Shown piece by piece: positions 2,760-51,296 of a DNA stretch of 51,879 nucleotides. How positions within the stretch are numbered: the stretch's first letter is position 1; the number at the start of each line of letters is the position of its first letter. Below the pieces are notes generated by a model, which did no database searches, had not been told where the DNA came from, and saw nothing but the letters and a program-made list of their open reading frames with translations. Made by a program: the position numbers and the translations under genes. Source of the DNA: Candidatus Buchananbacteria bacterium RIFCSPLOWO2_01_FULL_39_33 (lineage in GTDB: Bacteria > Patescibacteriota > Patescibacteriia > 2-01-FULL-39-33). The DNA lies in the NCBI GenBank assembly GCA_001817505.1, contig MHIM01000012.1, positions 1 through 51,879 of the forward strand, in the 5' to 3' direction.

Positions 2760-2846
2760 CCAAAACAGCCAGTCAGGATATTTATTTGATTGAATCATTA
2801 TTTTAAGATTGCTATAATCAATTTATTAATTAATAGCCCTAAATCT

Positions 2847-3392: not shown

Positions 3393-3516
3393 TGTTGTTA
3401 GCTTATTAGGATTTATAATGTTGCTGGCCTCGCCATGACAGTATATAAAATTTAATTTCTCATTTTCTTATTTTCTCCACAGAAGGAACTGGTAGCTTTA
3501 ATTTTTTATACCCTCT

Positions 3517-3930
3517 ATGCCCTTGGATTTAACCAATTTTTTCAAATTAGAAAGATTTTTTAGTTTGCAGCCGTCTATTGCTCTTAACACGGTTTATTTT
3601 CTCTTGGCGATTTTTGGAGCGGTTATTATAGCTGGCATTTTTTTTAAAGTTATTCAAAAAATCGGCCGAGGCGATTCTTTTTCCAAGAAATTATGGCAAA
3701 AATATCATCTGATGTTTTTGACCCTGGGAGTTATCGGAGTGATTTTGACTTGGTTTCGCTATGAGAGGGTTTATGTTCTTTCGGCCAGATTTTGGTTGTT
3801 GGTTTGGCTGCTGGGTTTGGTTTTTTGGCTGGCGCTTATTTTAAAATATCAGATTAAAAATATTCCCCCAGCCAGGGAAAAGTTGCAGAGGACCAATGAC
3901 TTCAATAAATACCTGCCCAAGAAGAAATAA
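3517..3930 (+). CDS. hypothetical integral membrane protein
   Basis: 137 aa with three to four hydrophobic helices and a basic C-terminus. No recognisable motif. Confidence 0.5.
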   Translation: MPLDLTNFFKLERFFSLQPSIALNTVYFLLAIFGAVIIAGIFFKVIQKIGRGDSFSKKLWQKYHLMFLTLGVIGVILTWFRYERVYVLSARFWLLVWLLGLVFWLALILKYQIKNIPPAREKLQRTNDFNKYLPKKK

Positions 3931-3940
3931 TCATTGATTG

Positions 3941-4306
3941 ATGGAAGGACATAATTCTAAAATCGGCAGATTAGGTGAAGATCTGGCTGGCCGATTTTTA
4001 GAAAAAAACGGTTATCAGATAATTGACAGGAATTTTCAAACCCGCTACGGAGAAATTGATCTCATTGCTCGGCAGGCAGATGAGATTTTATTTTGTGAGG
4101 TCAAAACCCGTTTATCACTACAATATGGCTATCCGGAGCAAGCAGTTGACGGGAAAAAAATTAATCATTTGCTTCAAGCGGCTAAAATATATTTGAAAAT
4201 AAAAAATTTTAATTGTTTTTGGCGTTTGGATATTATCAGCGTGGAACTGGTCGGTAACCGGGAACCGAAAATAGAATGGTTTAAGGATGTGAGTAGCCAG
4301 TATTGA
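3941..4306 (+). CDS. yraN: YraN-family (UPF0102) endonuclease-like protein
   Basis: GRLGEDLAGRFLEKNGYQIIDRNF..YGEIDLIA....ILFCEVKTR is the typical YraN pattern. Confidence 0.8.
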   Translation: MEGHNSKIGRLGEDLAGRFLEKNGYQIIDRNFQTRYGEIDLIARQADEILFCEVKTRLSLQYGYPEQAVDGKKINHLLQAAKIYLKIKNFNCFWRLDIISVELVGNREPKIEWFKDVSSQY

Positions 4307-5885: not shown

Positions 5886-6284
5886 ATGGATAATGACGAT
5901 TTTGAGGAAAAGGAAATTTTGGTTTTAGTGGAAAGTCCATTTGCCGGAGATAATGATTGGGTGATTGCTCTAAATATCAAGTATGCCAGGGCTTGCTTGC
6001 GTGATTCTTTAAGGCGCGGTGAGTGTCCCTTTGCTTCCCATTTGCTTTATACCCAGACCGGTGTTCTAAGAGATAAAGTGCCTGAAGAAAGAAAATTAGG
6101 GATTAAAGCCGGTTTGGCCTGGGGCCGGCGAGCCCAAAAAACAGTAGTTTATACTGACTTGGGCCTTACTAATGGCATGAAGTTAGGGATAGCGCGGGCC
6201 GAGGAAGCTAACCGGCCGGTTGAGTTTCGCACTTTGCCTAATTGGCAGGAGATATTGAGCAACACTGAACCGCTTAAATTTTAA
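5886..6284 (+). CDS. conserved hypothetical protein (phage-associated-type family, function unknown)
   Basis: 132 aa: VLVESPFAGD...NIKYARACLRDSLRRGECPFASHLLYTQ...VVYTDLGLTNGM. Higher GC than its neighbours; own terminator. Confidence 0.55.
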   Translation: MDNDDFEEKEILVLVESPFAGDNDWVIALNIKYARACLRDSLRRGECPFASHLLYTQTGVLRDKVPEERKLGIKAGLAWGRRAQKTVVYTDLGLTNGMKLGIARAEEANRPVEFRTLPNWQEILSNTEPLKF

Positions 6285-6324
6285 ATCCCGCGCCGAGTTT
6301 TCTCTGGAGCGGGATTGATTTTTT
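6284..6324 (+). terminator. intrinsic terminator
   Basis: AATCCCGC (6284-6291) pairs with GCGGGATT (6309-6316), followed by a T-run. Confidence 0.7.
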
Positions 6325-6370
6325 AAATTTTTAGTTTTATTATTAAAATATAAATAATCATCAATAATTT

Positions 6371-8341
6371 ATGTTACTTACTTGGCTTTCTCTTATTATC
6401 GCTCTTGGCGGTTTTGGTTTTGCCAGCTTTTTAGTTTTTAAACTAATCAAGCAAAAAGTAGCCAGCCAAGGACTTGAGGTCATTTCTGCTTACTTGGAAA
6501 AAGGCGTGATGATTTTTATTTTTAAAGAGTATTTTATTTTATCCATTTTTATTTTAATTATAGCGGTAATTTTAGCCGCCTTGCCCATGGTCTCTTGGCA
6601 AATAGTTTTAACTTTTATTTTAGGAGCGATTTTTTCTATGACGGCCAGTTTTATTGGTTTAAAGATCACTGTTTTAGCTAATAGCCGGACAGCCGAAAAT
6701 TGCGCCAAAGATTTGCGTTCAGGTTTTGATTTGGCTCTTTCAGCCGGTTCAGCGGCCGGCCTGGCTATTGCCAGTTTGGGCTTATTAGGACTCTCCTTGC
6801 TTTATTTAATCTTTAAGGAACCGGCAGTAATTTACGGCTTTGGTCTAGGCGCTTCTTTAGCCGCTTTATTCATCAGAATCGGCGGCGGCATTTATACCAA
6901 GGCGGCCGATATGGGCGCTGACTTGGCCGGCAAATTGGAAAACAATATTCCGGAAGATGACCCGCGCAATCCGGCTTCTATTGCCAATAGCGTCGGTGAC
7001 AATGTTGGCGATGTAGCCGGAGTAAGCGCCGATCTTTTTGAAAGTTATGTTGATGCGCTGATGGTAGCGATGGTTTTAGGCGTGGTCTTTTTGCCGCTTT
7101 TTGGCTCTCAAGCCATTGCTTTGCCGCTCTTAATAGCCGGCCTGGGCCTTATCGCTTCTATTTTAAGCAACTTGTCAGCCAAGTTTTTTAAAGTCAGTTT
7201 AGCTTTATTATTAAGTAGCCTTAATTGGCTGGCTGTCTTACTGGTTTTACTTGCTTCATTTTTAGTTATTAAGTACGCTATTGGCGATTTGAACATTTTT
7301 TTCGCTTTAGCCAGCGGACTGGTGGCTGGCGTGATTATCAATCTTTCAACCGAGTATTTTACTTCCAATAAAAGGCGGCTAGTTCAAAAACTGGCCCAAA
7401 GCTCCCAAACCGGTTTGGCGGCTAATATAATTTCCGGTTTGTCTTTGGGATTTTTCAGTTCCCTTATTCCGGTTTTAACGACCGTTATAGTGATTTATTT
7501 TTCTTATGACTTGGCTGGCTTTTACGGCTTAGCTCTGGCAGTTGTTGGTTTACTTTCCACCTTAGGTCTGATTTTAGCCACTAATATTTATGGTCCGATA
7601 ACCGACAATGCCGCCAGTTTGGCGCTAATGGCCGGCTTAGGCAATGAAACCTTAGAGCGCGCCAAAGAGTTGGACGCCTTGGGCAATACTACCATGACTA
7701 TCGGCAAGGGCTTGGCTATAACCAGCGCTACTTTAACCGCTCTATTGCTTTTAATCGCTTTTGCCAAAATAATAAATTTGGAAATTATTAATTTAATCAG
7801 TCCCCAGGTCTTGGCCGGTTTGCTTATCGGTGGCTTATTGCCTTTTGTTTTTACGGCTTTAATTTTAAAATCAGTCAGCCAGGCCACTGCTAAAATAGTT
7901 GAGGAAATTCGGCGCCAGTTTAGAGAAATTGCCGGACTAATTTCCGGCCAAGCCGAACCGGATTATAAGAAATGCATAGAAATTTCAACTTTAGCCGCTT
8001 TAAAACAAATGATGGCTCCCGGGGTTTTGGCTATGGCCACTCCAGTTATAGTCGGCTTTTGGTTGGGTGAAGAGTCCTTGGCTGGACTATTGGCTGGTTC
8101 AATTATAGTCAGTTTTCTTTTGGCCTTGTTTATGACTAATGCCGGCGGCGCTTGGGATAATGCTAAAAAATTTATTGAAGCTGGCAATTTAGGCGGCAAA
8201 AACAGCGAGGCGCATAAAGCGGCCATAGTCGGCGATATCATCGGCGATCCGCTCAAAGACGTGGCTGGCCCGGCCTTGAATATTCTGATAAAATTAATGG
8301 CGATTATTGCTATAATCATTGCGCCGCTATTATTGTTATAA
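6371..8341 (+). CDS. hppA: membrane-bound ion-translocating pyrophosphatase
   Basis: 656 aa polytopic protein. GGGIYTKAADMGADLAGK, DDPRNPASIANSVGDNVGDVAG, GGAWDNAKKFIE and GDIIGDPLKDVAGPALN are signature motifs. Confidence 0.95.
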   Translation: MLLTWLSLIIALGGFGFASFLVFKLIKQKVASQGLEVISAYLEKGVMIFIFKEYFILSIFILIIAVILAALPMVSWQIVLTFILGAIFSMTASFIGLKITVLANSRTAENCAKDLRSGFDLALSAGSAAGLAIASLGLLGLSLLYLIFKEPAVIYGFGLGASLAALFIRIGGGIYTKAADMGADLAGKLENNIPEDDPRNPASIANSVGDNVGDVAGVSADLFESYVDALMVAMVLGVVFLPLFGSQAIALPLLIAGLGLIASILSNLSAKFFKVSLALLLSSLNWLAVLLVLLASFLVIKYAIGDLNIFFALASGLVAGVIINLSTEYFTSNKRRLVQKLAQSSQTGLAANIISGLSLGFFSSLIPVLTTVIVIYFSYDLAGFYGLALAVVGLLSTLGLILATNIYGPITDNAASLALMAGLGNETLERAKELDALGNTTMTIGKGLAITSATLTALLLLIAFAKIINLEIINLISPQVLAGLLIGGLLPFVFTALILKSVSQATAKIVEEIRRQFREIAGLISGQAEPDYKKCIEISTLAALKQMMAPGVLAMATPVIVGFWLGEESLAGLLAGSIIVSFLLALFMTNAGGAWDNAKKFIEAGNLGGKNSEAHKAAIVGDIIGDPLKDVAGPALNILIKLMAIIAIIIAPLLLL

Positions 8342-10934: not shown

Positions 10935-11127
10935 GCCACTTCTTTAGAAGAAGTGGCACAAAACTCCGAGCGATGAAAAATTTGGCGCTTCAAGTAAAAT
11001 TCTTTCCCCTCCTTTCCAAGGAGGGGCCTGCCTGCCGGCAGGCAGGTTGGGGGTGGTTGGCCGAAGTTTTAGGCAAACCCCTCTGTCTCCGCCAACTGGC
11101 GGATTCGTCTCCCCTTGGCAAGGGGAG
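10935..11127. repeat. cluster of GC-rich palindromes
   Basis: GCCACTTCT ttaga AGAAGTGGC (10935-10957); CCCCTCCTT tcc AAGGAGGGG (11006-11026); perfect 20-bp CCTGCCTGCCGGCAGGCAGG (11027-11046); CTCCCCTTGGCAAGGGGAG (11109-11127). The ORFs here overlap each other on both strands. Confidence 0.85.
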
Positions 11128-26202: not shown

Positions 26203-26643
26203 TTAGGTTTTATGAATTATAATTTCCCTTTTATTCCCTCTTAGAGTTTTGAAATTTATTTTAAGGCAATCTTTCGGCCAGCTAGCGCGTACTCTATCAG
26301 CCCATTCAATCACGGTGATATATAATGGATTATTCAGGTAATCATTGATACCAATCGCTTCTAAATCTTTGCCACTTAATAAACGGTAGGCATCGATATG
26401 AACCAGCTTCCGTAGAGACGGGGCATGCCCCGTCTCTACATCATAATTCTTCATTAAAACAAAAGTCGGGCTGGTAATCATATCGGCTACTCCCAGGCCT
26501 TTGGCCAGGCCTTTGACAAAAGCCGTTTTGCCACTGCCCAAATCGCCAATCAGACAAAGCGTTTCACTGCCTTTTAGAGTTTGGGCGATATTTTTAGCAA
26601 ATTCGAAGGTTTCTTTTTCAGAATTAGTGATTATTTTATTCAT
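26203..26643 (-). CDS. tsaE: tRNA t6A37 biosynthesis protein TsaE
   Basis: GDLGSGKT P-loop, SPTFVLM, HIDAYRL. Carries the 28-bp palindrome in frame (codes ..VETGHAPSLRK..). Confidence 0.9.
   Translation of the reverse strand: MNKIITNSEKETFEFAKNIAQTLKGSETLCLIGDLGSGKTAFVKGLAKGLGVADMITSPTFVLMKNYDVETGHAPSLRKLVHIDAYRLLSGKDLEAIGINDYLNNPLYITVIEWADRVRASWPKDCLKINFKTLRGNKREIIIHKT
26412..26439. repeat. perfect 28-bp palindrome GTAGAGACGGGGCATGCCCCGTCTCTAC (copy 1, inside tsaE)
   Basis: Identical copies at 34736-34763 and 34919-34946. Confidence 0.95.
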
Positions 26644-34693: not shown

Positions 34694-35021
34694 AATTCCG
34701 CAACCCTATGTTTTTTAGTTGTCATGGCCAATACAGTAGAGACGGGGCATGCCCCGTCTCTACTTGATATTAATATGGGATTGCGGAGTTTATTCCGAAC
34801 AAAGTGAGAAACCTGCTCGCAATGACATACAATGAATGTTTTATAATGTTGCTGGCCGAATACCCCTGGCTTTTAAGCCAGGGGATGAAGGCCAGTATGA
34901 GAAAAAATATTGTCAGCAGTAGAGACGGGGCATGCCCCGTCTCTACTAGTCATTCTGAATTTGCCCAGACCTGCCTGCCGGCAGGCAGGTACTGCGGTCT
35001 TTAGACCACAGTCAAATTCAT
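34694..35021. repeat. nest of GC-rich palindromes in a 0.4-kb spacer
   Basis: 28-bp palindrome copies at 34736-34763 and 34919-34946. CCCCTGGC..GCCAGGGG (34863-34884). Perfect 20-bp CCTGCCTGCCGGCAGGCAGG (34970-34989). Flanking inverted repeats AATTCCGCAACCC/GGGATTGCGGAGTT and GAATTTG/CAAATTC. Right half of the GTCATTGCGA element at 34777-34826. Confidence 0.85.
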
Positions 35022-37696: not shown

Positions 37697-39334
37697 ATGA
37701 ATATATTTGCTATATCAGGATTACTTATTGTAGTCACTTGCAGTGTGATGACTTTTTTAATGTTTGTGCAAGGCAGTGAACGATCTCATCGAATCTGGGG
37801 TATTTTTTGTATTACCGTGTTTTTTTGGGGTATTGGCGTATTTAAAATCGCTAGTACCGCTGATCCGGAAATAGCAATCTTTTGGTGGAGGATTGGTTAT
37901 ATTGGTGTTATTTTTATTCCCATAATTTTTACTCATTTTGTTTATGAGTTTTTGAAATTAAAAATAGGCTGGTATATATGGGCATTATACTTATTAGGAG
38001 TTATTTTTTTGTATCTCAATTTATTTACAGATTTATTTATTGGTCAAGTTAGGCTGGTTTTTAATCAGTTTTATTATATTTCCTCTCCCGGACTTTTATA
38101 TAGTTTATTTTTTGTATTATTTATCGTATTTGTTCTTTTCAGCCATATTAAATTATGGCAAGCTCTTAGAAAATCTCATGGAATTTTAAAAGTACAATTA
38201 AAATATTTTTTTTTAGCTACCATAATTGGTTTTAGTGGAGGTACATTGAGTTTTTTACCAGTTTTTAACATAAATTTATATCCATTTTTGAATTTAACCG
38301 TCTTTCTTTACCCCATAATTATGGGGTATGCTATTTTTAAACATCATTTAATGAACATTAGAGTTATTGCTACCGAATTATTTTCCGGTTTTTTAGTAAT
38401 TGTAACTTTTGTTAAAGTATTTTTTTATTCTTCTCTCACAGAATTATTTCTAGGAATTGCAGTATTTTTAATCACTGTTATTTTTTCTATTTTATTAATC
38501 CAATTAGTTTTAAGGGAGGTTAACCGTCGCGAACAAATGGAAATCTTGACCAAGAACTTGCAAAAAGTAACCAAGGATTTAAAAGTGGCTAATAACAAAA
38601 TAGAGAGATTGGACCAAGCCAAGCTGGAATTCTTATCCATCGCTTCCCATCAGCTTCGCACCCCGCTGACTGTTATCAAGGGCTATGTGTCTATGATGCT
38701 GGAAGGCAATTTTGGCCCGATATCCAAACCAATCAAAGAGAATTTAAACAAAATTTATTTGGCTAATGAACGGTTGATAAGTTTAGTGGAGAGTTTGCTC
38801 AATATTTCGCGTATTGAAGCTGGTCGTTTGGAATTTAATATTAAACCCACTAATTTGGTGGCAATAATCGCACCCTTGCTTAGCGGCTTTAAAGAAAAAG
38901 CTAAAGAAAAGAATTCAAAATTGAATTTTTTGCCGGCCAAAAATATTGAACAGGTCTTAGCTGACGCTCAAAAAATAAAAGAAGTGTTAACCCATTTATT
39001 AGACAACGCTATTAAATACACCAATGATGGCACTATTACTTTAAGATTATATCAAGCAGGCCAATCAGTAGTTTTCAGTTGCCAGGATACCGGCCGAAAT
39101 ATTTTAGCGCCGGCCTTACCTGATTTTTTTGATAGATTTATTCAAAAAAATAAAACCGTTACTGCCTTAACTCAAAATACCAACTTAGGTCTTTATTTTT
39201 CTCAAATGGTTATAGAAAAAATGGGTGGAAAACTTTGGGTAGAAAGCGCCGGAGCGAATCAGGGTAATAAATTTTATTTTAGTCTGCCCGGAATCGGTAA
39301 AAATCAAATTAAAAAATTGGGGATTAAAAATTAG
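37697..39334 (+). CDS. multi-TM sensor histidine kinase paralog with degenerate ATP-binding boxes
   Basis: About 7 N-terminal TM helices. H box SIASHQLRTPL and N box LLDNAIKYT are intact. The G1 box reads DTGRN and the G2 box reads NTNLGL, both having lost their glycines. Confidence 0.8.
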   Translation: MNIFAISGLLIVVTCSVMTFLMFVQGSERSHRIWGIFCITVFFWGIGVFKIASTADPEIAIFWWRIGYIGVIFIPIIFTHFVYEFLKLKIGWYIWALYLLGVIFLYLNLFTDLFIGQVRLVFNQFYYISSPGLLYSLFFVLFIVFVLFSHIKLWQALRKSHGILKVQLKYFFLATIIGFSGGTLSFLPVFNINLYPFLNLTVFLYPIIMGYAIFKHHLMNIRVIATELFSGFLVIVTFVKVFFYSSLTELFLGIAVFLITVIFSILLIQLVLREVNRREQMEILTKNLQKVTKDLKVANNKIERLDQAKLEFLSIASHQLRTPLTVIKGYVSMMLEGNFGPISKPIKENLNKIYLANERLISLVESLLNISRIEAGRLEFNIKPTNLVAIIAPLLSGFKEKAKEKNSKLNFLPAKNIEQVLADAQKIKEVLTHLLDNAIKYTNDGTITLRLYQAGQSVVFSCQDTGRNILAPALPDFFDRFIQKNKTVTALTQNTNLGLYFSQMVIEKMGGKLWVESAGANQGNKFYFSLPGIGKNQIKKLGIKN

Positions 39335-39337
39335 TTT

Positions 39338-40984
39338 ATGGATATAAAAAACATAGCGTTAATCATTGTCAGCTTGATTAATCTAATCTTGGGTTTTATT
39401 ATTTTAATTCAGCGTCCAGTCAAAAAATCAAATACTATTTTTAGTTTGATGGTTTTTAATGTGGTTTTATGGGCGGCTATTATTGTTGTTTACCGTCATA
39501 TTGCCCAACTGGAAACAGCTTTGATTTTAGTCCGTTTATTTTTTGCTATTGCTATTTTTATACCTTTGTTTTTTCTATTTTTTACTTTTATTTTTCCTTA
39601 CCAGAAAAAATTATGGAAGAAAACAGTAATTTTTATTATTTGTCTGCCGCCAATTATTATTTTTCTGCTGACTTTGTTCACTAATACTATTATTAGCGGC
39701 CTTCAGCCGGTGGTGGGAGCTGAAAGTTTGATTATTTTTAGCCGCTGGTTCTTTTTTTACGCTCTGACCAGTTCTCTTTATTTTATCTGGACACTGTTAA
39801 ATCTTTTTCTTGATATCTTTAAAACTTCGGGAATTATCAGAACTCAATTAAAATACATTTTTATTGGCTTGTTAGCTTCCTCGATAATTGCGCTCGGCAC
39901 TAATTTATTTATGCCCTGGTTCGGCTATTTCGGTCTTGATTGGATCGGCCAAACCTCAACAGTTATCTGGATAGCTTTTGTGGCTTATGCCTTGGTCAGA
40001 GAGCGGTTAATGGATGTGAAAATTATCACCACCATCTTATTTTCTATTTTTATAGTGGTTATATCGGTCTTTTACATTTTTGAAGCTCAAGATCAATTTG
40101 AATTAATGTCTAGGATATTGATGTTTATTTTAACCCTCGTTTTTATATTGTTGCTGATTAAATCGGTTTTAACCGAAGTCAATCGCCGCGAGGAAATAGA
40201 AAAATTAACCGTTAATCTGCAAATAACCACTAAAGACCTTAAAAGAGTTAATAAAGAATTGAAAAAATTAGATAAAGCCAAATCAGAGTTTTTATCAATT
40301 GCTTCGCATCAACTACGCACTCCTTTAACGGTTATTAAGGGCTATGTTTCGATGATGTTAGAAAACAATTTTGGTCAAGTCCCAAAATTAATTAAGGACA
40401 ATTTAAATAAAGTTTATTTATCTAATGAACGATTGATTAGTTTGGTGGAGAGTTTGCTTAATCTCTCACGCATTGAATCCGGTCATTTGGAGTTTAATAT
40501 CAAACCCGCTGATTTAGCGGAAATAACCAAGTCCATAGTTGAGGGTTTTAAACAAAAAGTCAGCCAAAAAAACTTGAAATTGGAATTTTTGCCGGCTACC
40601 AACATTCCCCAAGTTTTAGTTGACGCTCAAAAAATCAAAGAGGTTATCTCTAATCTAATTGACAATTCCATCAAATACACTAAGACTGGCGGCATTATTA
40701 TCGGGCTTCATCAAGAAAGCCAATCGGTGGTTTTTTCTTGCCAGGATACCGGCATCGGCGTTTTGCCAGAGGACTTGCCCAGGTTGTTTGAAAAATTCGT
40801 CCGGGGCAAGGGTATGATGCAGGTCTATACCGAGGGTACGGGCTTAGGGCTTTATTTTGCCCGCATGGTCATAGAAAATATGGGCGGGCGGATTTGGGTA
40901 GAAAGCGCCGGCCAGGATCAGGGCAGCAAATTTTCTTTCAGTTTGCCGATAGCTGATCAGAGTAAGGTGAAGAAAATTAAATAG
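39338..40984 (+). CDS. multi-TM sensor histidine kinase
   Basis: Paralog of the upstream gene with all boxes intact: SIASHQLRTPL, LIDNSIKYT, DTGIG, GTGLGL. Confidence 0.88.
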   Translation: MDIKNIALIIVSLINLILGFIILIQRPVKKSNTIFSLMVFNVVLWAAIIVVYRHIAQLETALILVRLFFAIAIFIPLFFLFFTFIFPYQKKLWKKTVIFIICLPPIIIFLLTLFTNTIISGLQPVVGAESLIIFSRWFFFYALTSSLYFIWTLLNLFLDIFKTSGIIRTQLKYIFIGLLASSIIALGTNLFMPWFGYFGLDWIGQTSTVIWIAFVAYALVRERLMDVKIITTILFSIFIVVISVFYIFEAQDQFELMSRILMFILTLVFILLLIKSVLTEVNRREEIEKLTVNLQITTKDLKRVNKELKKLDKAKSEFLSIASHQLRTPLTVIKGYVSMMLENNFGQVPKLIKDNLNKVYLSNERLISLVESLLNLSRIESGHLEFNIKPADLAEITKSIVEGFKQKVSQKNLKLEFLPATNIPQVLVDAQKIKEVISNLIDNSIKYTKTGGIIIGLHQESQSVVFSCQDTGIGVLPEDLPRLFEKFVRGKGMMQVYTEGTGLGLYFARMVIENMGGRIWVESAGQDQGSKFSFSLPIADQSKVKKIK

Positions 40985-43855: not shown

Positions 43856-45586
43856 ATGGAATACACGATTTTCAAAATCAAACGGCAAATAATTGATTTA
43901 GTCGCTCAAGCCATTGAACAGGATTTTGATTTAACTAATTTGGAAGTGACTAGACCGCCGGATTGGCAGCTGGGCGATTTAGCTGTGCCTTGTTTTTATC
44001 TTTCCAAATTAACCAGGCAGGCGCCGAATAAAATAGCTGAGGAGTTGGCCGGTAAAATAAATCCAGGCGGAGTCATTAAAGCCATAAAAAATATCGGTCC
44101 CTATCTCAATTTTTTTATTGATCCAGCTGTTTTTGGCAAAAGCGTCATTAATGAGATTCAAAAATATCAAGCTACTTATGGTTCTTTTAAATCGGGCCAG
44201 ACAAAAATTATGTTGGAGTATTCCCAGCCCAATACCCATAAGGAATTTCATATCGGCCATTCCCGCAATGTCATTTTAGGCCATAGCTTGGTTAATTTAT
44301 TAAAACTCATGGGCCATAAAGTCATGGCTGTCAATTATATCGGTGATACTGGAGCGCACGTCACCAAATGTTTATGGGCTTACGATAAATTCTATAAAGA
44401 TAAAGAAATTCCCAGCGATAAAGGAAAATTCCTGGGCCAGATCTACGCGGCAGCGTCTCAGAAAGTAGAGACCAATAAGGAATATAAGAAGGAAGTTGAC
44501 GAAATACTGCGTCAATTGGAAGCTGGCGATGCCCGGGCCTTCAAGGGAGCCGCTAAAAAATGGCTGGCTTTATGGCAGCAGACCAGAAAATGGAGCTTAG
44601 ACAGTTTTAATGATATTTATAAAATATTAGGCGTGAAATTTGACCAGGTTTTTTATGAAAGTGAAATGGCCAAGCCGGGCAAAAAGATAGTTGAAGATCT
44701 GCTGGCAAGGAAAATAGCCGAGAGATCAGAAGGAGCGGTGATAATTGATTTGGAAAAATACGGCTTGAAGAAATTCCTGCTTTTGAAGTCAGACGGCTCG
44801 TCTTTGTATGCCACCAAAGAATTGGCGCTGGCCAAGCTGAAATTTGAAAAATTTAAAATTGATGAGAGTGTTATAGTGGTTGATAGCCGGCAAAGTTTTT
44901 ATCTTAAGCAATTCTTTAAAACCCTGGAGATTATCGGTTGGGGCGGCAAAATGATCCATATTTCCTATGAATTCGTGACTTTAAAAGCAGGGGCGATGGC
45001 TTCCAGAAGGGGCAATGTTGTTTTATTTGAGGATTTTTATAATCAAGTTCTTGGCCGGGCCAAAATAGAAACCCAAAAAAGGCATAATGATTGGCCGGAA
45101 AAAAAGATTCAAGAAGTAGCTGACCAGATAGCTCTGGCGGCTATAAAATTTAATATGCTAAAAGTTGGCAATAACAGCATTATTGTTTTTGATATTGATG
45201 AGGCCCTGGACTTTGACGGCTTCAGCGGTCCTTATATACAATATACTTGTAGCCGGATAAAAAGCGTCCTTAAAAAAGCCAGTTTTCGGCCAGGCCAGCG
45301 GATTGACTATGCCAAATTAACAACCGAGTTGGAAAAGGAGCTTTTACTCAAACTAGCCAGTTTTCCCGAAGTAATTGCCGAATCAGCCCAGCAATACGAC
45401 CCCAGCGGCTTAGCCCAGTATTTATTTGAGCTGGCCAGATTGTTTTCCACTTTTTATCAAAAAATTCCAATTATCAACTCACCCCAGGAAATAAGCAAGG
45501 CCAGATTATTATTAATTGATTCAATCAGAATAGTTTTGATAAATGGTTTGGCGGTTTTAGGGATAAAATCACCCAATCAGATGTAA
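43856..45586 (+). CDS. argS: arginine--tRNA ligase
   Basis: 576 aa. HIGH motif (EFHIGHSRN), MASRRGN in the KMSKS position, DALR-type anticodon-binding C-terminus. Confidence 0.93.
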   Translation: MEYTIFKIKRQIIDLVAQAIEQDFDLTNLEVTRPPDWQLGDLAVPCFYLSKLTRQAPNKIAEELAGKINPGGVIKAIKNIGPYLNFFIDPAVFGKSVINEIQKYQATYGSFKSGQTKIMLEYSQPNTHKEFHIGHSRNVILGHSLVNLLKLMGHKVMAVNYIGDTGAHVTKCLWAYDKFYKDKEIPSDKGKFLGQIYAAASQKVETNKEYKKEVDEILRQLEAGDARAFKGAAKKWLALWQQTRKWSLDSFNDIYKILGVKFDQVFYESEMAKPGKKIVEDLLARKIAERSEGAVIIDLEKYGLKKFLLLKSDGSSLYATKELALAKLKFEKFKIDESVIVVDSRQSFYLKQFFKTLEIIGWGGKMIHISYEFVTLKAGAMASRRGNVVLFEDFYNQVLGRAKIETQKRHNDWPEKKIQEVADQIALAAIKFNMLKVGNNSIIVFDIDEALDFDGFSGPYIQYTCSRIKSVLKKASFRPGQRIDYAKLTTELEKELLLKLASFPEVIAESAQQYDPSGLAQYLFELARLFSTFYQKIPIINSPQEISKARLLLIDSIRIVLINGLAVLGIKSPNQM

Positions 45587-45648
45587 AATTTATTTTGGTT
45601 AGCCGCCACCAATCATTATCTTAATTGATTAAAGTTATAAATTTAGGT

Positions 45649-46023
45649 ATGCAAAAAAAATACAAAATATTATTAATTGAAGATGAGCCGGAGTTAATCG
45701 GTCTGTTTAGCGATGCGCTACGACTGGCTGGTTTTCAAGTAGAAGTGGTAGAGGACGGCATTCAGGCCTGCGGCGCTGTTAAAAAATTAAAACCCGATTT
45801 GGTTTTGCTTGATCTAATAATTCCCAAAAAAGACGGCTATGAGGTTTTAAAAGAAATTAAGTGTGATCAAACGGTCAAAAACACTTTAGTTTATGTTTTC
45901 AGCAATTTAACGCAAAAAACTGAAATTACCAGAGCTTTTAAATTGGGTGCTAAAGAATATTTAATTAAATCCGATTACACCCCTTCAAAATTAGTCGCCA
46001 AAATCAATCAGACCTTGAAATAG
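45649..46023 (+). CDS. single-domain response regulator (CheY-like receiver)
   Basis: KILLIEDE, phospho-acceptor context DLVLLDLIIPKKDG, conserved Lys region GAKEYLIK. ATG 45649 preferred. Confidence 0.85.
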   Translation: MQKKYKILLIEDEPELIGLFSDALRLAGFQVEVVEDGIQACGAVKKLKPDLVLLDLIIPKKDGYEVLKEIKCDQTVKNTLVYVFSNLTQKTEITRAFKLGAKEYLIKSDYTPSKLVAKINQTLK

Positions 46024-46114
46024 TTACCAAACTATTTCATTCTCTAACCTTGATTAAAAAGATAAAAGCTGGTAAACTACCAGCTACTATTAAATAATAA
46101 TCATTGAAATATTC

Positions 46115-46309
46115 ATGAAACCAGTTATCAGTGAAACTTGCATTGCTTGCGGCACTTGCGAGGCGCTTTGTCCGGAAGTTTTCAAAATTGAGGACCAGGG
46201 CGATAAAATGATGGCCGTTGTTCAGCCAGCTGATTACCAAAAACATAAAGATAAAATAGACGAAGCCCTGGCCGCCTGCCCGGTTCAGGCTATCAGTTGG
46301 GAGGAATAA
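46115..46309 (+). CDS. small single-cluster ferredoxin
   Basis: 64 aa. CIACGTCEALCP plus a distal CP (ACPVQAI). Confidence 0.85.
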   Translation: MKPVISETCIACGTCEALCPEVFKIEDQGDKMMAVVQPADYQKHKDKIDEALAACPVQAISWEE

Positions 46310-46406: not shown

Positions 46407-49400
46407 ATGACTGATCAAAAAAATAATCCTCTAATTGAAAAGGAATTAACAATCAAAAAATTCTGGGAGGACAATCAGATATTTCAAGAAAGTTTGGCTG
46501 CCACCAAAGATGGTGAGGTTTTTAGTTTTTATGACGGCCCGCCTTTTGCCACCGGCACGCCTCATTATGGCCATTTGGTGGCCAGTCTAATAAAAGACGT
46601 CGTACCTAGATATCAGACCATGAAAGGCAATTATGTTGAGCGTCATTGGGGCTGGGATTGCCATGGACTACCAGTGGAAAATTTAATTGAGCAGGAACTG
46701 AATTTGTCTAACCGTAAAGATATTGAAGGTTTAGGTATTGGTAAATTTAACGCCGCCTGCCGCTTAAGCGTTTTAAGGTATGCCGATATTTGGAAAAAAA
46801 CCATTCCACGTTTGGGCCGCTGGGTGGATATGGAAGCCGATTACCGCACGATGGAGCCCTGGTATATGGAAAGTATTTGGTGGGTCTTTAAGCAGCTTTA
46901 CGATAAAGATCTGATTTATGAGGGTTATAAGGCCATGCATATTTGCCCCCGCTGTGAAACTACTTTATCTAATTTTGAAGTGACTCAAGGTTATAAAGAT
47001 ATTAAGGATTTGGCGGTCACTGCTAAATTTGAATTGCTCCCACCCCCCTTACCCCCCCCTCCGGCAGGGGGGGAGAATATTCCCACTTATGTTTTGGCTT
47101 GGACGACTACTCCTTGGACTTTAATTGGTAATGTGGCCTTGGCGGTGGGCGAGGATATTGATTATGTGCTGGTTCAAGAAAACAAGAAAACAAGAAAACA
47201 AGAAAACAAGAAAGGTGAAGAAAAATTTATTTTAGCTAAAGATTTGGTTGATAAAGTTTTTAAAGATGAGGAATATGAAGTTATAGAAGAATTTAAGGGT
47301 AAGGATTTGGTGGGCAAGAAATATAAACCCCTCTTTGATTACTTTTTAGATAAAGATATTGAACACAAAGAAAATCTTTATACTATTGTCAGCGCTGATT
47401 TTGTCTCAACAACTGATGGCACTGGCATTGTCCATATTGCGCCGGCCTTTGGTGAGGAAGATCTGGCCCTGAGCCAGAAAAAAAATTTGCCCCTCATCCA
47501 ACATGTTGATTTAACTGGCCGGATTAAAACCGAAGCTAAAGAATTTGCCGGCTTGGAAGTCAAGCCCAAAGAAAATAGCCAGAAAACCGATGTAACCATA
47601 ATTAAATATTTGGCAGCTAAAAAATTATTATTTTCTGAAGAAGAATACGAGCATAGTTATCCGCACTGCTGGCGCTGTGATACGCCCCTCTTAAATTACG
47701 CCACCTCTTCTTGGTTTGTTAAGGTGACTGCTCTCAAAAAAGACCTGATTAAAAACAATAAAAAGGTTAATTGGGTGCCGGCGCATTTGAAAGACGGTCG
47801 TTTTGGCCATTGGCTGGCAGAAGCGCGCGATTGGGCAATTTCCCGCTCGCGGTTTTGGGGCACGCCCTTGCCGGTTTGGCGCTGCCAAAATTGCCAGGAG
47901 ATTAAAGTGGTCGGTTCCATTGAAGAATTGGATAAAAACAAGATTGATAATATTAATATTTACGCCATCCGCCACGGCGAATCGGAAAAAAACACTAAAG
48001 CCATTTTTAGTAATAATCTTAATAAATATCCTTTAACCGATTGGGGCCAAGAACAAACTGAGCAGGCCGTTAAAAAGTTAAAGGATCTTAAAATTGATTT
48101 AATTATTTCTTCGGAAGTTTTAAGATGTAAACAAACAGCCGAAATTTTAGCCAAAGAATTGGAGCGAGAATTAAAATTTGACTCTCGCTTAAATGAAGTT
48201 GACCCGGGCCAGTGGCAAGATCGGCCCGATAATAATGAGGCCGCTTTAAGAATGCTGACTCACTGGCGAACTGTTAATAATTACCAGATTCCTGATGGTG
48301 AAAGCGTTAGCCAGGTGGCAGAAAGGATGTTCAATCTTTTTAAGGCAATAAATAAAGATTACCAAGGTAAAAATATCTTATTGGTTTCTCATGGCGATAA
48401 TATCAGAATTTTAAATGGCCGACTCTTAGGCCTTAAAAATGGAGAAATTTTCCAAAAACCCATGCCGGAAAATACCGATGTTATCAAGTTGGCCGAAAAA
48501 ACCGTTGATTTACATAAAGATGTGGTTGATGCTATTGGGTTTGAGTGTCCGAAGTGTCAAAGCCAGATGAAAAGAATCAGTGAGGTTTTGGATTGCTGGT
48601 TTGAATCTGGTTCCATGCCTTATGCCCAATTCCATTATCCTTTTGAGAGTAAAGATAAATTTAAAAAAACTTTTCCAGCTGATTTTATCGCCGAAGGCGT
48701 CGATCAGACCCGCGGCTGGTTTTATACTTTAATGGTTTTGTCTACGGCTTTATTTAATCAGCCGGCTTTTTTAAACGTGATTGCCAACGGCATTGTCTTG
48801 TCAGCTAACGGCGCTAAAATGAGCAAGCGTCTGAAGAATTATCCTGAACCGGACTTGATAATGGACAAATACGGGGCTGATGCTCTAAGGTTTTATCTTT
48901 TGTCTTCGCCGGTTATGATAGCGGAAAACTTGAATTTTTCCGAAAGCGGCGTCAAAGAGATCTTCCAGAAAGTGATTATGTTGATGAATAATATCTTGAA
49001 ATTTTATAAGCTTTATGAGGTTGCTTCTCTAAAATCGAGTAATAATTCTAAAAATATTTTGGATCAATGGCTGTTAGCTAAACTGAATAAATTAATTGAA
49101 GATGTAACCAGGGCAATGGATGATTACCAGCTGGCCAAAGCTGTCCGGCCGCTCCAAGAATTCATTGACGAATTTTCCACTTGGTGGCTAAGGCGCAGCC
49201 GCGAACGTTTTAAATCCAGTGATGAGACCGACAAACAACAGGCCCTGATAACTTGCCAATTCGTTTTAATCGAACTGGCTAAGGTTATGGCTCCCTTTTT
49301 GCCCTTTTTAGCTGAGCAGGTTTATCAACAGGCCAACGGGCCGCTGAAGTCGGTTCATTTGGACAAATGGCCAAGAGCCGCTAAAGTCGACCAAAAAATT

Positions 49401-49928
49401 CTCGGACTAATGATCGGTGTCAGGAAAATTGTGGAATTGGGCTTAGCTAAAAGAGCCGAAGCCGGCCTAAAAATCAGGCAACCGCTGGCTTCGCTGAAAT
49501 TTTCAATTATCAATGATTCAGCTTTATTAGCTGGTTTTAAATTTTTAAACCAGCAAAAACAAGAAGAATTGTTTGGTCTAATTAAAGAGGAATTGAATGT
49601 TAAGGCCGTGGTTTTTGCTAAGGATCTCGGCCAGGAGGTGGAACTAGATACGGTGATAACTAAAGATTTGAGGTCGGAAGGATTATTGCGCGAATTAATC
49701 AGAACAATTAATAGCTTAAGAAAAGACCAAGGTTTAACTATCGGTGATAAAATTAAGGTTTTATGGCAGAGCGACAACCCGGAAATTATCAAAGTTTTAA
49801 CTGATAAAAAATTAGCCAATGAATTAAAAAACTCTGTCCTGGCTGATGAATTTGTAGCCACTGATAATACCGGCGAAGTCATAAAGATAAACGACGAAGA
49901 AATAAAAATCAAGATAGAAAAAATTTAA
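46407..49928 (+). CDS. ileS: isoleucine--tRNA ligase with three lineage-specific inserts
   Basis: 1173 aa. HYGH (HIGH), CP1 editing domain (WTTTPWTL), KMSKR, Cys4 knuckle WRCQNCQ / CPKCQ. Confidence 0.95.
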   Translation: MTDQKNNPLIEKELTIKKFWEDNQIFQESLAATKDGEVFSFYDGPPFATGTPHYGHLVASLIKDVVPRYQTMKGNYVERHWGWDCHGLPVENLIEQELNLSNRKDIEGLGIGKFNAACRLSVLRYADIWKKTIPRLGRWVDMEADYRTMEPWYMESIWWVFKQLYDKDLIYEGYKAMHICPRCETTLSNFEVTQGYKDIKDLAVTAKFELLPPPLPPPPAGGENIPTYVLAWTTTPWTLIGNVALAVGEDIDYVLVQENKKTRKQENKKGEEKFILAKDLVDKVFKDEEYEVIEEFKGKDLVGKKYKPLFDYFLDKDIEHKENLYTIVSADFVSTTDGTGIVHIAPAFGEEDLALSQKKNLPLIQHVDLTGRIKTEAKEFAGLEVKPKENSQKTDVTIIKYLAAKKLLFSEEEYEHSYPHCWRCDTPLLNYATSSWFVKVTALKKDLIKNNKKVNWVPAHLKDGRFGHWLAEARDWAISRSRFWGTPLPVWRCQNCQEIKVVGSIEELDKNKIDNINIYAIRHGESEKNTKAIFSNNLNKYPLTDWGQEQTEQAVKKLKDLKIDLIISSEVLRCKQTAEILAKELERELKFDSRLNEVDPGQWQDRPDNNEAALRMLTHWRTVNNYQIPDGESVSQVAERMFNLFKAINKDYQGKNILLVSHGDNIRILNGRLLGLKNGEIFQKPMPENTDVIKLAEKTVDLHKDVVDAIGFECPKCQSQMKRISEVLDCWFESGSMPYAQFHYPFESKDKFKKTFPADFIAEGVDQTRGWFYTLMVLSTALFNQPAFLNVIANGIVLSANGAKMSKRLKNYPEPDLIMDKYGADALRFYLLSSPVMIAENLNFSESGVKEIFQKVIMLMNNILKFYKLYEVASLKSSNNSKNILDQWLLAKLNKLIEDVTRAMDDYQLAKAVRPLQEFIDEFSTWWLRRSRERFKSSDETDKQQALITCQFVLIELAKVMAPFLPFLAEQVYQQANGPLKSVHLDKWPRAAKVDQKILGLMIGVRKIVELGLAKRAEAGLKIRQPLASLKFSIINDSALLAGFKFLNQQKQEELFGLIKEELNVKAVVFAKDLGQEVELDTVITKDLRSEGLLRELIRTINSLRKDQGLTIGDKIKVLWQSDNPEIIKVLTDKKLANELKNSVLADEFVATDNTGEVIKINDEEIKIKIEKI
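47047..47085. repeat. G/C-homopolymer hairpin element in frame in ileS (codes LPPPLPPPPAGGE)
   Basis: CCCCCCCT (47063-47070), ccggc, AGGGGGGG (47076-47083), within CTCCCACCCCCCTTA....GGGAG. Confidence 0.8.
47175..47214. repeat. 8-nt tandem repeat CAAGAAAA x4 plus one variant, inside ileS
   Basis: caagaaaa caagaaaa caagaaaa caagaaaa caagaaag. Codes QENKKTRKQENKK. Confidence 0.9.
47949..48506 (+). other. histidine-phosphatase (phosphoglycerate-mutase-like) domain inserted within IleRS
   Basis: IYAIRHGESEKN, LTDWGQEQ, ISSEVLRCKQTAEIL, NEVDPGQWQ, IPDGESVSQVAER, LLVSHGDNIR. Lies between WRCQNCQ and VDLHKD..CPKCQ. Confidence 0.75.
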
Positions 49929-49952: not shown

Positions 49953-51296
49953 ATGACTAATAAAGTTATTAAGCCGGAATTATTAGCACCGGCGGGCAGC
50001 TTGAAAAAATTAAAAATCGCTTTGGCTTATGGCGCCGATGCCGTTTATATCGGCTTGCCGGCTTATTCCTTACGGGCCCAGACCGATTTTAATTTGAAAG
50101 ATATTAAAACGGGGATTGAATACGCTCATCAATTAGGCAAAAAAGTTTATATCACTATCAATATTTTTGCGCATAACCGGCATTTAAAATTACTGCCGGC
50201 TTATTTAAAACAACTGAAAAAATACCGGCCCGATGCTATTATTGTTTCTGATCCCGGCGTTTTACAACTGGTTAAAAAAATATTGCCAAAAGTGGCTATA
50301 CATCTTTCCACTCAAATGAATACGCTTAATTATGAAGCGGTCAGATTTTGGCAAGAGCAGGGGGTTAAGAGAATAATTTTAGGCCGGGAAGCGACTTGGG
50401 CTGATATTAAAGAAATACACCGAAAAGTTCCAAAAATGGCCTTGGAAGTTTTTGTCCATGGAGCGATGTGCCTGAGTTATTCTGGACGCTGTTATCTTTC
50501 GGCTTGGCTTTCCAAGCGCAGCGCCAATTTGGGTCTCTGTACTCAACCCTGCCGCTGGAATTATAAAATATATTTAGAAGAACAATTGCGTCCCGGCCAA
50601 ATGATGCCGATTGAAGCTGATGACCAGGGCACTTACCTAATGAACTCTAAAGATTTGAATTTAATTGATCATTTGAATGAACTAATTAAAGCTGGCGTTG
50701 TCTTTTTTAAAATTGAGGGCCGGACCAAAAGTATTTATTATCTGACAGTGGTCACTCGCGCTTATCGCCAAGCCATTGATTTGTTATCTCCCCCTGCCCG
50801 AGGGGGAGTGGCGCATCTGCCTGCGCAGGCAGGAAGCGCCGAGGGGGTGGGAGAAAAACAAAAATACAAAAAAGCACCAAAACAAAATTTAAAATTATTA
50901 AAACAAGAATTAAATAAAATTGACAACCGCGGTTATACCACTGGATTTTTATTGGGTGATGAAGCTAGTGGTCGGGAAGAATTTTCCACTGCCAAAGCGA
51001 TGAGCGATTGGGAGTTTGTCGGGGAGGTGGTTGGAATAAAAAAACAAGAAAACAATAAAACAAAAAAACAAATTATTATTATAAAGCCACATAATGCCTT
51101 AAAGGCCGGAGAAAAAGTGGAAATTATTACTCCCGCCGCTACTTATAAAACAAAATTCAAGGAATTTTTTGATAAAAATCATAAGTCAGTTAATAAAATT
51201 CGCGGCGGAACGACTGACCTTTACTCGGTGGAAATTAGTAATAAATATGATATAGTAAAGATGAGCTTAATCCGAAAAAAGAAACTCCTAAAATAA
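49953..51296 (+). CDS. U32-family peptidase-like protein
   Basis: EVFVHGAMCLSYSGRCYLS signature and the N-terminal TIM-barrel-like region. Carries a GC-rich insert (SPPARGGVAHLPAQAGSAEGVGE) and an A-rich insert (KKQENNKTKKQ). Confidence 0.88.
   Translation: MTNKVIKPELLAPAGSLKKLKIALAYGADAVYIGLPAYSLRAQTDFNLKDIKTGIEYAHQLGKKVYITINIFAHNRHLKLLPAYLKQLKKYRPDAIIVSDPGVLQLVKKILPKVAIHLSTQMNTLNYEAVRFWQEQGVKRIILGREATWADIKEIHRKVPKMALEVFVHGAMCLSYSGRCYLSAWLSKRSANLGLCTQPCRWNYKIYLEEQLRPGQMMPIEADDQGTYLMNSKDLNLIDHLNELIKAGVVFFKIEGRTKSIYYLTVVTRAYRQAIDLLSPPARGGVAHLPAQAGSAEGVGEKQKYKKAPKQNLKLLKQELNKIDNRGYTTGFLLGDEASGREEFSTAKAMSDWEFVGEVVGIKKQENNKTKKQIIIIKPHNALKAGEKVEIITPAATYKTKFKEFFDKNHKSVNKIRGGTTDLYSVEISNKYDIVKMSLIRKKKLLK
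50788..50853. repeat. compound GC-rich palindromic element in frame in the U32 gene
   Basis: CTCCCCC tgcccga GGGGGAG (50788-50808). GGCGC (50810-50814) pairs with GCGCC (50836-50840), enclosing the perfect palindrome CTGCCTGCGCAGGCAG (50817-50832). Confidence 0.85.

Follow-up and report, generated by a model that had tools for sequence, protein, structure and literature searches.

A predicted histidine phosphatase nested within the isoleucyl-tRNA synthetase of Patescibacteria

The isoleucyl-tRNA synthetase (IleRS) gene of Candidatus Buchananbacteria bacterium RIFCSPLOWO2_01_FULL_39_33 (Patescibacteriota) encodes a complete synthetase with a second predicted enzyme, a histidine phosphatase, nested inside it. 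The gene, ileS, lies on contig MHIM01000012.1 of assembly GCA_001817505.1, of which the forward strand from position 1 to 51,879 is analysed here and called the window throughout. The insert is very probably an active phosphatase with a function tied to IleRS: its relatives have been nested repeatedly at different sites of the synthetase, they tend to be encoded beside ileS when separate, and their catalytic residues are strictly conserved. Sequence comparison also indicates that the fusion is old and widespread in Patescibacteria, and that it has arisen or been rearranged repeatedly. The features of the gene are as follows.

46407-49928, + strand: ileS open reading frame (ORF), 1173 amino acids (aa), a type-2 (eukaryote-like) IleRS with a nested phosphatase domain
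46407-47948, + strand: N-terminal segment of IleRS, aa 1-514 (Pfam, NCBIfam, alignment to solved IleRS)
46563-46574, + strand: HIGH motif, here HYGH, within the N-terminal segment
47103-47120, + strand: CP1 editing motif TTTPWT, within the N-terminal segment
47418-47462, + strand: CP1 editing motif GTGIVHIAPAFGEED, within the N-terminal segment
47823-47861, + strand: CP2-3 linker ARDWAISRSRFWG, aa 473-485, within the N-terminal segment
47883-47894, + strand: first cysteine pair CQNC (Cys493/496, in WRCQNCQ), one half of a zinc knuckle
47949-48506, + strand: inserted histidine-phosphatase domain, aa 515-700 (Pfam envelope aa 518-695, positions 47958-48491)
47970-47978, + strand: RHG motif R522-H523-G524 in IYAIRHGESEKN, with the nucleophilic histidine (assigned by motif and conservation)
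48123-48125, + strand: R573 in ISSEVLRCKQTAEIL, second phosphate-binding arginine (conserved in 258/259 domains)
48195-48197, + strand: E597 in NEVDPGQWQ, acidic residue at the proton-donor position of the superfamily (250 Glu and 9 Asp in 259 domains)
48390-48392, + strand: H662 in LLVSHGDNIR, second catalytic histidine, in the SHG motif (259/259)
48507-49925, + strand: C-terminal segment of IleRS, including the remainder of CP3 (Pfam, alignment to solved IleRS)
48546-48557, + strand: second cysteine pair CPKC (Cys714/717, in CPKCQ), the other half of the zinc knuckle
48591-48611, + strand: tryptophan motif DCWFESG, aa 729-735, within the C-terminal segment
48816-48830, + strand: KMSKS motif, here KMSKR, within the C-terminal segment
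49062-49487, + strand: anticodon-binding domain (Anticodon_1, Pfam)
49638-49922, + strand: C-terminal DUF5915 part (Pfam)

A preliminary description of this DNA, made from its letters alone, had read the gene as an IleRS of 1173 aa in unbroken frame, with about 186 codons inserted between the halves of a Cys4 zinc knuckle and the synthetase motifs intact on both sides, and all of this stands. The ORF is continuous; because (47949 - 46407)/3 = 514, the interval 47949-48506 comprises exactly codons 515-700, with Cys493/496 to one side and Cys714/717 to the other; and every motif that had been quoted for knuckle and phosphatase is present in the translation, as are HYGH, KMSKR and both CP1 editing motifs. 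Pfam recognizes tRNA-synt_1 (in two pieces), His_Phos_1, Anticodon_1 and DUF5915 in the full protein. The NCBIfam model for ileS (TIGR00392) is matched at 890.6 bits against a cut-off of 621.4, which together with the HIGH, KMSKS and CP1 editing motifs places the protein, by its motifs otherwise normal and competent for editing, among isoleucyl-tRNA synthetases, and it belongs to the type-2 or eukaryote-like kind, aligning to 6LDK at E 6e-230 and to 8C8V at 3e-213 versus 1e-86 for the IleRS1 structure 1FFY, and ending in DUF5915. It falls outside the mupirocin-resistance enzymes MupA and MupB, whose models score 738 and 726 bits against an 'exception' cut-off of 1900, and no GNAT domain was found in it (NF040702, 306 bits against a cut-off of 1999).

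The insert reads as a complete member of branch 1 of the histidine phosphatase superfamily, as the preliminary description had claimed in calling it a complete PGM-like domain. Within the whole protein, His_Phos_1 (PF00300) matches aa 518-695 over profile positions 1-179 of 194 with E 6e-39; the insert alone reaches E 1.4e-40 and 139.5 bits against a cut-off of 21.7. R522, H523, R573, E597 and H662 make up the full branch 1 catalytic core, and the further phosphatase motifs LTDWGQEQ and IPDGESVSQVAER are also present. Among 67 full-length homologs with less than 50% mutual identity, R522, H523 and H662 are invariant and R573 and E597 at least 90% conserved, on par with core IleRS residues; the HIGH, KMSKS and CP1 editing motifs of the same homologs are invariant or nearly so. 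R522 and H523 are likewise invariant in alignments A2 and A3. A larger set of 259 embedded domains, covering all sites and copies (105 loci from GTDB genomes, 153 cluster representatives and the window), was aligned to a hidden Markov model (HMM) of the domain. It retains the first arginine, the first histidine and the second arginine in 258 cases each, an acidic residue in all 259 (250 Glu, 9 Asp) and the second histidine in all 259. Outside these residues the inserts share just 25-45% identity. By this measure all five catalytic residues are under strong purifying selection, and their retention while the rest of the domain diverged is the pattern of a working enzyme, neither a relic nor a structural plug.

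Below the family level, the insert is, on profile scores, a member of the superfamily and of no characterized subfamily. Its best solved relatives are CobC (6NRU, E 2.5e-14) and PhoE (1H2E), and the curated models that score highest on it are dPGM_arch, CobC, RNase H/acid phosphatase, GpmB and PspA, each falling well short of its cut-off. Phosphoglycerate mutase (dPGM) membership is not indicated (dPGM_arch 111.7 versus 225, pgm_1 50.5 versus 81.7, the remaining dPGM models lower), nor is that of CobC alpha-ribazole phosphatase (TIGR03162, 108.4 versus 162.9) or SixA phosphohistidine phosphatase (TIGR00249, 34.5 versus 74.5, with a match limited to residues 3-86). At 186 residues, the insert has the length of the short 'phosphatase' form rather than the longer mutase form, and its alignment to CobC runs through the cap region without large gaps, pointing to a CobC-like cap. 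A GW.D motif after RHG, which we take to be typical of dPGM and PhoE, is absent from the insert, judged by eye rather than by any tool. Against the anti-phage defence models of PADLOC, the insert and the whole protein each gave 0 families, and a role as a defence-system component was discarded on that ground.

The position of the domain is best described with the names established for yeast IleRS, whose Rossmann fold comprises residues 8-169 and 527-643 and whose CP2 and CP3 comprise 420-458 and 459-526, the other parts being the CP core, the CP1 editing domain, the anticodon-binding domain and the C-terminal junction domain (PMC7955072). In yeast, Ile-AMP and the CCA end of the tRNA occupy a pocket lined by the CP2-3 linker (453-ARDWNVSRNRYWG-465) and by Trp529 (PMC7955072). 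The equivalents in the window protein are the linker at aa 473-485 and the tryptophan motif at aa 729-735, and the phosphatase lies between them, in mid-CP3, in the loop of the small zinc knuckle. In the closest solved IleRS, 6LDK, residues 21-496 and 504-804 align with 13-509 and 699-987 of the window protein, so that about 7 residues correspond to 189; insert-free relatives with the same Cys-x2-Cys...Cys-x2-Cys knuckle have a linker of about 15-20 residues (P0012, L129). The short linker that had been supposed for related enzymes at this point thus exists. Many fused relatives lack the CP3 cysteines; the window protein has both the Cys4 knuckle and the domain.

The structure prediction of the full protein that had been proposed as a check gave a confident model that retains the IleRS fold (AlphaFold from a 67-sequence alignment; mean predicted local distance difference test score, pLDDT, 90.8; predicted template modelling score, pTM, 0.81). 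The insert is modelled at a pLDDT of about 76-97 in an alpha/beta pattern, with strands at 517-522, 565-568, 588-591 and 656-661 and helices at 545-559 and 572-585. A fold search with the whole model returned synthetases only, with template modelling (TM) scores of 0.83-0.91, normalized to the target, for IleRS2 8C8V, 1ILE and 6LDK. That the best PDB matches are type-2 or eukaryotic IleRS shows that the modelled synthetase fold survives the insertion.

An identical 1173-aa protein is encoded on 18 contigs of independent NCBI, JGI and ENA assemblies (among them NCBI GCA_001817335.1; JGI 3300002502 and 3300002105; ENA ERZ4903125, ERZ28563641 and ERZ27254754), and in 6/6 of the places listed the neighbours are identical as far as the contigs reach: argS, response regulator, ferredoxin, ileS, peptidase U32 and ruvA. 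The same protein with the same neighbours on 18 independent contigs implies that the junctions are real. The idea that the arrangement is an artefact, whether of chimeric assembly or through interruption of ileS by a mobile or intein-like element, has in its favour the lower GC content of the first 250 nt of the insert (0.33, against 0.44-0.46 in the flanks). That value is within the normal range of the window, the reading frame is continuous, and Pfam finds just synthetase domains and His_Phos_1, with no intein/Hint or homing-endonuclease domain; the same architecture moreover recurs in more than 100 species, including closed genomes. We therefore regard an artefact as next to impossible: chimeric assembly is refuted by the 18 contigs and by the loci found across species in the pattern scan described below, and an intein or mobile element is rejected because none of their domains was found by Pfam. 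Two database fragments (P0001, P0002) that start at internal Met617 match the window IleRS exactly or nearly so at first, and their C-terminal parts switch to another IleRS sequence after 'ALF(N/D)(Q/E)PAF', P0002 missing in addition 27 residues from the C-terminal end of the phosphatase. The two fragments represent either strain variants or chimeric contigs.

The spread of the insert among IleRS orthologs, whose comparison had been recommended, proved wide. With the junction region as query, a search for homologs yielded about 16 fragments that have both Pfam domains, 33-50% identical over the parts covered, with Paceibacterota, Vogelbacteria and Patescibacteria group as named sources. A DNA pattern specific to the fusion (W-G-x-x-[LIFVM]-P-x-W, 27-37 codons, R-H-G-E; 0 chance matches expected in the window) matched at least 120 loci in a scan of one genome for each GTDB species. 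About 116 of the 120 among the matches listed are true fusions by tblastn and HMM (115 IleRS and 1 ValRS, valyl-tRNA synthetase), a count over pattern-selected loci rather than a fraction of all Patescibacteria; three are chance matches in insert-free IleRS (bins labelled Bacteroidetes, Nocardioides and one unclassified) and one is cut off at a contig end. About 10 divergent inserts missed by tblastn were recovered by the HMM. Where sources are named, they are essentially without exception Patescibacteria, with Paceibacterota, Parcubacteria (Nomura-, Jorgensen-, Giovannoni-, Lipton-, Zambryski-, Adler-, Falkow- and Magasanikbacteria, Sungiibacteriota, Spechtbacterales), Peregrini-/Peribacteria and numerous bins called Saccharibacteria; many of the bin labels come from automated pipelines. 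Two closed chromosomes carry the fusion (CP060229.1, OY970126.1). In an exhaustive profile search of 1.84 billion cluster representatives (50% identity), the best 150 matches all have E at or below 1e-113, and most form one stretch over flank, insert and flank; among them, the domain HMM finds an embedded domain in 143 of the 148 new clusters, the other 5 being among the weakest matches. Over-length relatives (1224-1275 aa) proved to be ordinary single-insert forms.

The phosphatase occupies three sites in these synthetases, assigned in our survey by regular expression and HMM, so that a few labels may be off. Site 1 is the CP3 position of the window protein and accounts for the majority; site 2 lies about 20 residues past D.WFESG, ahead of KMSKS; site 3 lies about 75 residues past KMSKS at the start of the anticodon-binding domain (P0050 is of this type). 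The combinations 1+3 and 2+3 occur, tandem pairs at site 1 are typical of Peregrini-/Peribacteria (L012, L021, L026, L116), and one fragment has four His_Phos copies (P0253). Copies inside one protein are 33-40% identical, and the domains cluster by site, those of site 3 together, those of site 2 together, and the first and second tandem copies each apart. This low identity within proteins and the clustering by site indicate that the arrangements are ancient and not recent duplications. In a few cases ValRS carries a His_Phos domain at the homologous CP3 position (L115, positions 6133-8000 of DAIDAM010000003.1, valS E 1e-149; P0290, P0291, P0297). The ValRS domain is closest to another set of stand-alone PhoE-like proteins, which suggests a separate, probably independent acquisition. 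Some IleRS carry further enzymatic domains beside His_Phos: a NUDIX domain at aa 226-343 in the CP1 region (P0250), a P-loop AAA_18/AAA_33 kinase-like domain at aa 747-863, at site 2 (P0251), and one or two GNAT acetyltransferase domains (P0259). IleRS in Patescibacteria seems to be a scaffold for nucleotide- or aminoacyl-directed enzymes. The P0251 kinase could not be equated with the kinase of locus L135 (below) or with a known kinase family, the similarity being at the P-loop level only (shikimate, APS and Pnkp1 kinases at E 0.03-0.07).

Stand-alone homologs of the insert (176-206 aa, 30-40% identity) keep the same catalytic residues, and in 6 of the 9 loci with readable surroundings (L129, L130, L131, L133, L136, L137) their gene lies a short way upstream of, and in the same direction as, an ileS that lacks the insert. 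The two genes overlap by 4 nt in L137; the other distances are gaps of 17, 74, 132 and 173 nt and one of 1.4 kb. The adjacent insert-free IleRS are 32-55% identical to the window IleRS, in alignments that are interrupted precisely at the insertion site. The order argS-(x)-His_Phos-ileS is found in L131, L133, L136 and L137, with recO after ileS in the first three, and a gene of NYN nuclease fold stands between His_Phos and ileS in L133. In a rough neighbour-joining tree of the IleRS core, built without support values, the four IleRS with an adjacent phosphatase gene nest separately among fused ones and the forms with site 3 only are scattered, which suggests repeated switching between states.

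The window itself has the argS member of this recurring order.

43856-45586, + strand: argS, arginyl-tRNA synthetase, upstream of ileS; part of the recurring order argS ... His_Phos ... ileS

Between argS and ileS of the window are genes for a single-domain response regulator (45625-46023) and a small 4Fe-4S ferredoxin (about 46109-46309), in the position held by the separate phosphatase gene in relatives. At L135 (positions 2194-4048 of a contig of JGI 3300009503), a stand-alone His_Phos gene overlaps one for a Pol-beta-type nucleotidyltransferase (weak MntA-like match), which overlaps a P-loop kinase gene (weak matches to adenylate/CMP kinase, PSTK and Pnkp); a leucyl-tRNA synthetase (LeuRS) gene follows 2.2 kb downstream. 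This operon may be a kinase-phosphatase-nucleotidyltransferase module.

What the phosphatase would do there is less firmly indicated than that it is active. The preliminary description had imagined a coupling of aminoacylation to the removal of phosphate from a nucleotide, a tRNA end or an alarmone-type by-product. Gene neighbourhood and the repeated independent fusions strengthen a functional link to IleRS but do not single out one of these substrates. The best explanation overall, to which we give about an even chance on the sequence comparisons above, is a phosphomonoesterase tied to IleRS that probably acts on a small nucleotide-type substrate and is coupled to the synthetase by proximity. 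A phospho-histidine would form on H523, E597 would protonate the leaving group, and water would then release the phosphate. Nesting in IleRS, or a neighbouring gene, would provide 1:1 co-expression and co-localization with the site of aminoacylation. The variation in site and copy number makes a rigid channel from one active site to the other unlikely, and the coupling would probably be by proximity and stoichiometry. The weakest step is the substrate itself, tentatively a small nucleotide-type phosphomonoester linked to the aminoacylation cycle, perhaps a by-product of adenosine-nucleotide type or a phosphorylated nucleotide that acts as an inhibitor, and not an intermediate of glycolysis; we favour it over any single rival while thinking it somewhat less probable than not. 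It is favoured because CobC acts on a nucleotide (alpha-ribazole-5'-phosphate), because the cap is CobC-like, and because NUDIX and nucleoside monophosphate kinase-like domains co-occur with the insert. The other best-characterized relative, the broad-specificity PhoE, also counts toward a small substrate. These conclusions must be tempered by several points that weigh against them. Every curated phosphatase subfamily model is below its cut-off, so the substrate is not readable from homology; NUDIX, kinase and GNAT domains each co-occur with the insert in one cluster only, the kinase being unassignable; the stand-alone homolog is away from ileS in 3 of the 9 loci; the variable site and up to four copies speak against an exact coupling to the active site of IleRS and would equally suit looser co-expression; and there is no evident reason for a nucleotide phosphatase to pair with IleRS in particular.

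The main rival explanation, which we consider unlikely although worth serious attention, is that the phosphatase heals tRNA ends, clearing phosphate from A76 of tRNA(Ile), and of tRNA(Val) in the ValRS forms, whether present as a 3'-phosphate, a phosphate derived from a 2',3'-cyclic phosphate or a 3'-pyrophosphate, and so restoring a chargeable CCA where the acceptor end binds. The insert sits in CP3, flanked by the elements that line the CCA-binding pocket, and toxSAS enzymes such as FaRel2 and CapRel do phosphorylate tRNA CCA ends. The company kept by the domain would also suit such a role: a P-loop kinase-like domain in the same IleRS in P0251, the Pol-beta nucleotidyltransferase and P-loop kinase with weak PSTK/Pnkp-like matches in the L135 operon, and the NYN nuclease-fold gene between His_Phos and ileS in L133. 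End damage would be expected in every tRNA, yet the fusion hardly occurs outside IleRS; a CobC-like cap suggests a small-molecule pocket; three sites and up to four tandem copies are hard to square with a single positioned acceptor end; and the kinase similarity is confined to the P-loop. We know of no RNA 3'-phosphatase in the histidine phosphatase superfamily, and the window protein is not a polynucleotide kinase-phosphatase, having no kinase domain by Pfam and a phosphatase fold different from the HAD or metallophosphoesterase type of such systems. It is improbable, too, that an ordinary metabolic phosphatase or mutase (for example of phosphoglycerate mutase or phosphoserine phosphatase type) has no link to aminoacylation and is merely assured of expression in streamlined genomes by fusion or adjacency to an essential housekeeping gene. 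The small genomes of Patescibacteria make gene fusion plausible, dPGM_arch, GpmB and PspA are among the top NCBIfam matches, and variation in site and copy number would mean that geometry is unimportant. Against this, the dPGM and phosphoserine phosphatase models score far below their cut-offs and the insert has the short phosphatase form; the partner, at three sites, in tandems and as an adjacent gene, is repeatedly IleRS or its closest paralog ValRS and not a random housekeeping gene; and internal nesting is far less likely to happen by accident than end-to-end fusion.

Two further possibilities seem to us more doubtful. The domain could be a self-protecting protein phosphatase that removes an inhibitory phosphate put on IleRS near the KMSKS/ATP site by a HipA/HipT-like toxin kinase. 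The superfamily contains the protein phosphatases SixA, PGAM5 and Sts-1, the class I synthetases GltX and TrpS are targets of HipA/HipT-like kinases, and the three insertion sites bracket the KMSKS region; the SixA match is weak and partial (34.5 versus 74.5), no defence or toxin model is matched, and a capped CobC-like architecture is unlike the open sites of protein phosphatases. To our knowledge there is no IleRS-directed kinase, none was seen in the window, and we hold this idea quite improbable. It is yet harder to credit that the domain is non-catalytic and either binds a phosphorylated ligand as an allosteric sensor or stabilizes CP3 after loss of the zinc knuckle. The loss of CP3 cysteines in many fused relatives would allow for a structural substitute, but the full catalytic set, proton donor included, is kept in 258-259 of 259 domains and also in stand-alone homologs, and the window protein retains its Cys4 knuckle together with the domain. 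The more ambitious view, one we rate as unlikely, gives IleRS a third dedicated active site, the insert, in addition to those for synthesis and editing; the domain would then perform a new repair or quality-control step in Patescibacteria, for example stripping a blocking phosphate or pyrophosphate from the CCA end of tRNA(Ile) or destroying a phosphorylated nucleotide that poisons the synthetic site, and IleRS would serve as the scaffold of a toolkit of His_Phos, NUDIX, GNAT and P-loop kinase domains.

Elsewhere the window, which is AT-rich, contains short GC-rich palindromic or hairpin-like sequences (47040-47075, about 50787-50855, 26410-26447, 34734-34771, 34917-34954, 11027-11052, 34964-34989). 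At least two are in frame within genes and encode Pro/Gly/Ala-rich patches, the first in CP1 of ileS (47040-47075, aa 212-223, PPPLPPPPAGGE, low model confidence) and the second in the peptidase U32 gene (about 50787-50855, SPPARGGVAHLPAQAGSAEGVGE); other palindromes have intergenic copies, GTAGAGACGGGGCATGCCCCGTCTCTAC (three times) and CCTGCCTGCCGGCAGGCAGG (twice). These copies suggest REP/RPE-like elements able to insert into genes. An A-rich tandem repeat of 8-nt units (AACAAGAA) at 47173-47231 in ileS encodes a low-complexity loop rich in Lys, Glu and Asn, KKTRKQENKKGEEK, within CP1 at about aa 257-275 (pLDDT about 53), and a similar repeat occurs at 51035-51085 in the peptidase U32 gene. 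Adjacent paralogous genes at 37697-39334 (545 aa) and 39338-40984 (548 aa) have DNA segments 69-78% identical, which indicates a tandem duplication.

A phosphatase embedded in a synthetase is described nowhere in the full-text literature, aminoacyl-tRNA synthetase reviews and databases that we searched. The fusion is not mentioned in a paper on synthetases of the candidate phyla radiation (PMC5370408) or in that on AARS Online (PMC11580382), and in a preprint on host defence against Patescibacteria a tRNA synthetase appears as a cloning tool only. The preliminary description, which knew of no synthetase with this domain and would have abandoned its interest in a documented and common feature, was right as to the literature; the insert is not singular, being common in Patescibacteria (more than 100 species), but it is not documented. 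Since the sequences are public and machine-annotated, the feature has gone unrecognized rather than the data unseen, and gene fragments are currently annotated as 'histidine phosphatase family protein, partial' or 'class I tRNA ligase family protein'. The multidomain synthetase is itself a known kind, and the predicted phosphatase activity of the partner is what is unprecedented in the searchable literature, for any aminoacyl-tRNA synthetase, despite how heavily these enzymes are studied. Nesting at three sites, tandems, a ValRS analogue and an adjacent gene form a classic genomic signature of functional partnership. Naming the substrate could expose a new housekeeping, repair or resistance step linked to the charging of tRNA, in organisms that rely on a host to supply their nucleotides and amino acids, and the three insertion points are naturally permissive sites for engineering class Ia synthetases.

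Among known systems, the type-2 IleRS of Priestia megaterium (IleRS2, 8C8V), Thermus thermophilus (1ILE) and Candida/yeast (6LDK, 7D5C) share the full scaffold, with sequence E values of 1e-203 to 1e-230: HIGH, KMSKS, CP1 editing motifs, CP2-3 linker, anticodon-binding and C-terminal domains. They have 7-15 residues where the window IleRS has its 186-residue phosphatase in CP3. Short-form branch 1 phosphatases, namely CobC (6NRU, 6E4B), PhoE (1H2E) and PspA, have the Pfam family, the Arg-His...Arg...Glu...His series, the length and the cap region of the insert; they are free-standing whereas the insert is nested in a synthetase, and it is the ortholog of none. His_Phos has been recruited to nucleotide and nucleic-acid enzymes in mycobacterial MutT1 (Nudix plus His_Phos, NF052459) and in the Rv2228c-type RNase H/acid phosphatase (NF005567). 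Both models match the insert weakly and far below their cut-offs, so there is no orthology, and those fusions are end-to-end and with other partners. The NCBIfam entry NF040702, 'isoleucine--tRNA ligase, N-acetyltransferase domain-containing', is an annotation-only precedent for an extra enzymatic domain embedded in IleRS; no publication on GNAT-bearing or His_Phos-bearing IleRS was found in the searchable literature. Class Ia synthetases also have established nested insertions, namely the CP1 editing domain and, in LeuRS, a leucine-specific domain. Each of these works on the tRNA or the aminoacyl moiety and is present in all members of its family; the insert described here, unlike them, is a predicted phosphomonoesterase restricted to one bacterial radiation.

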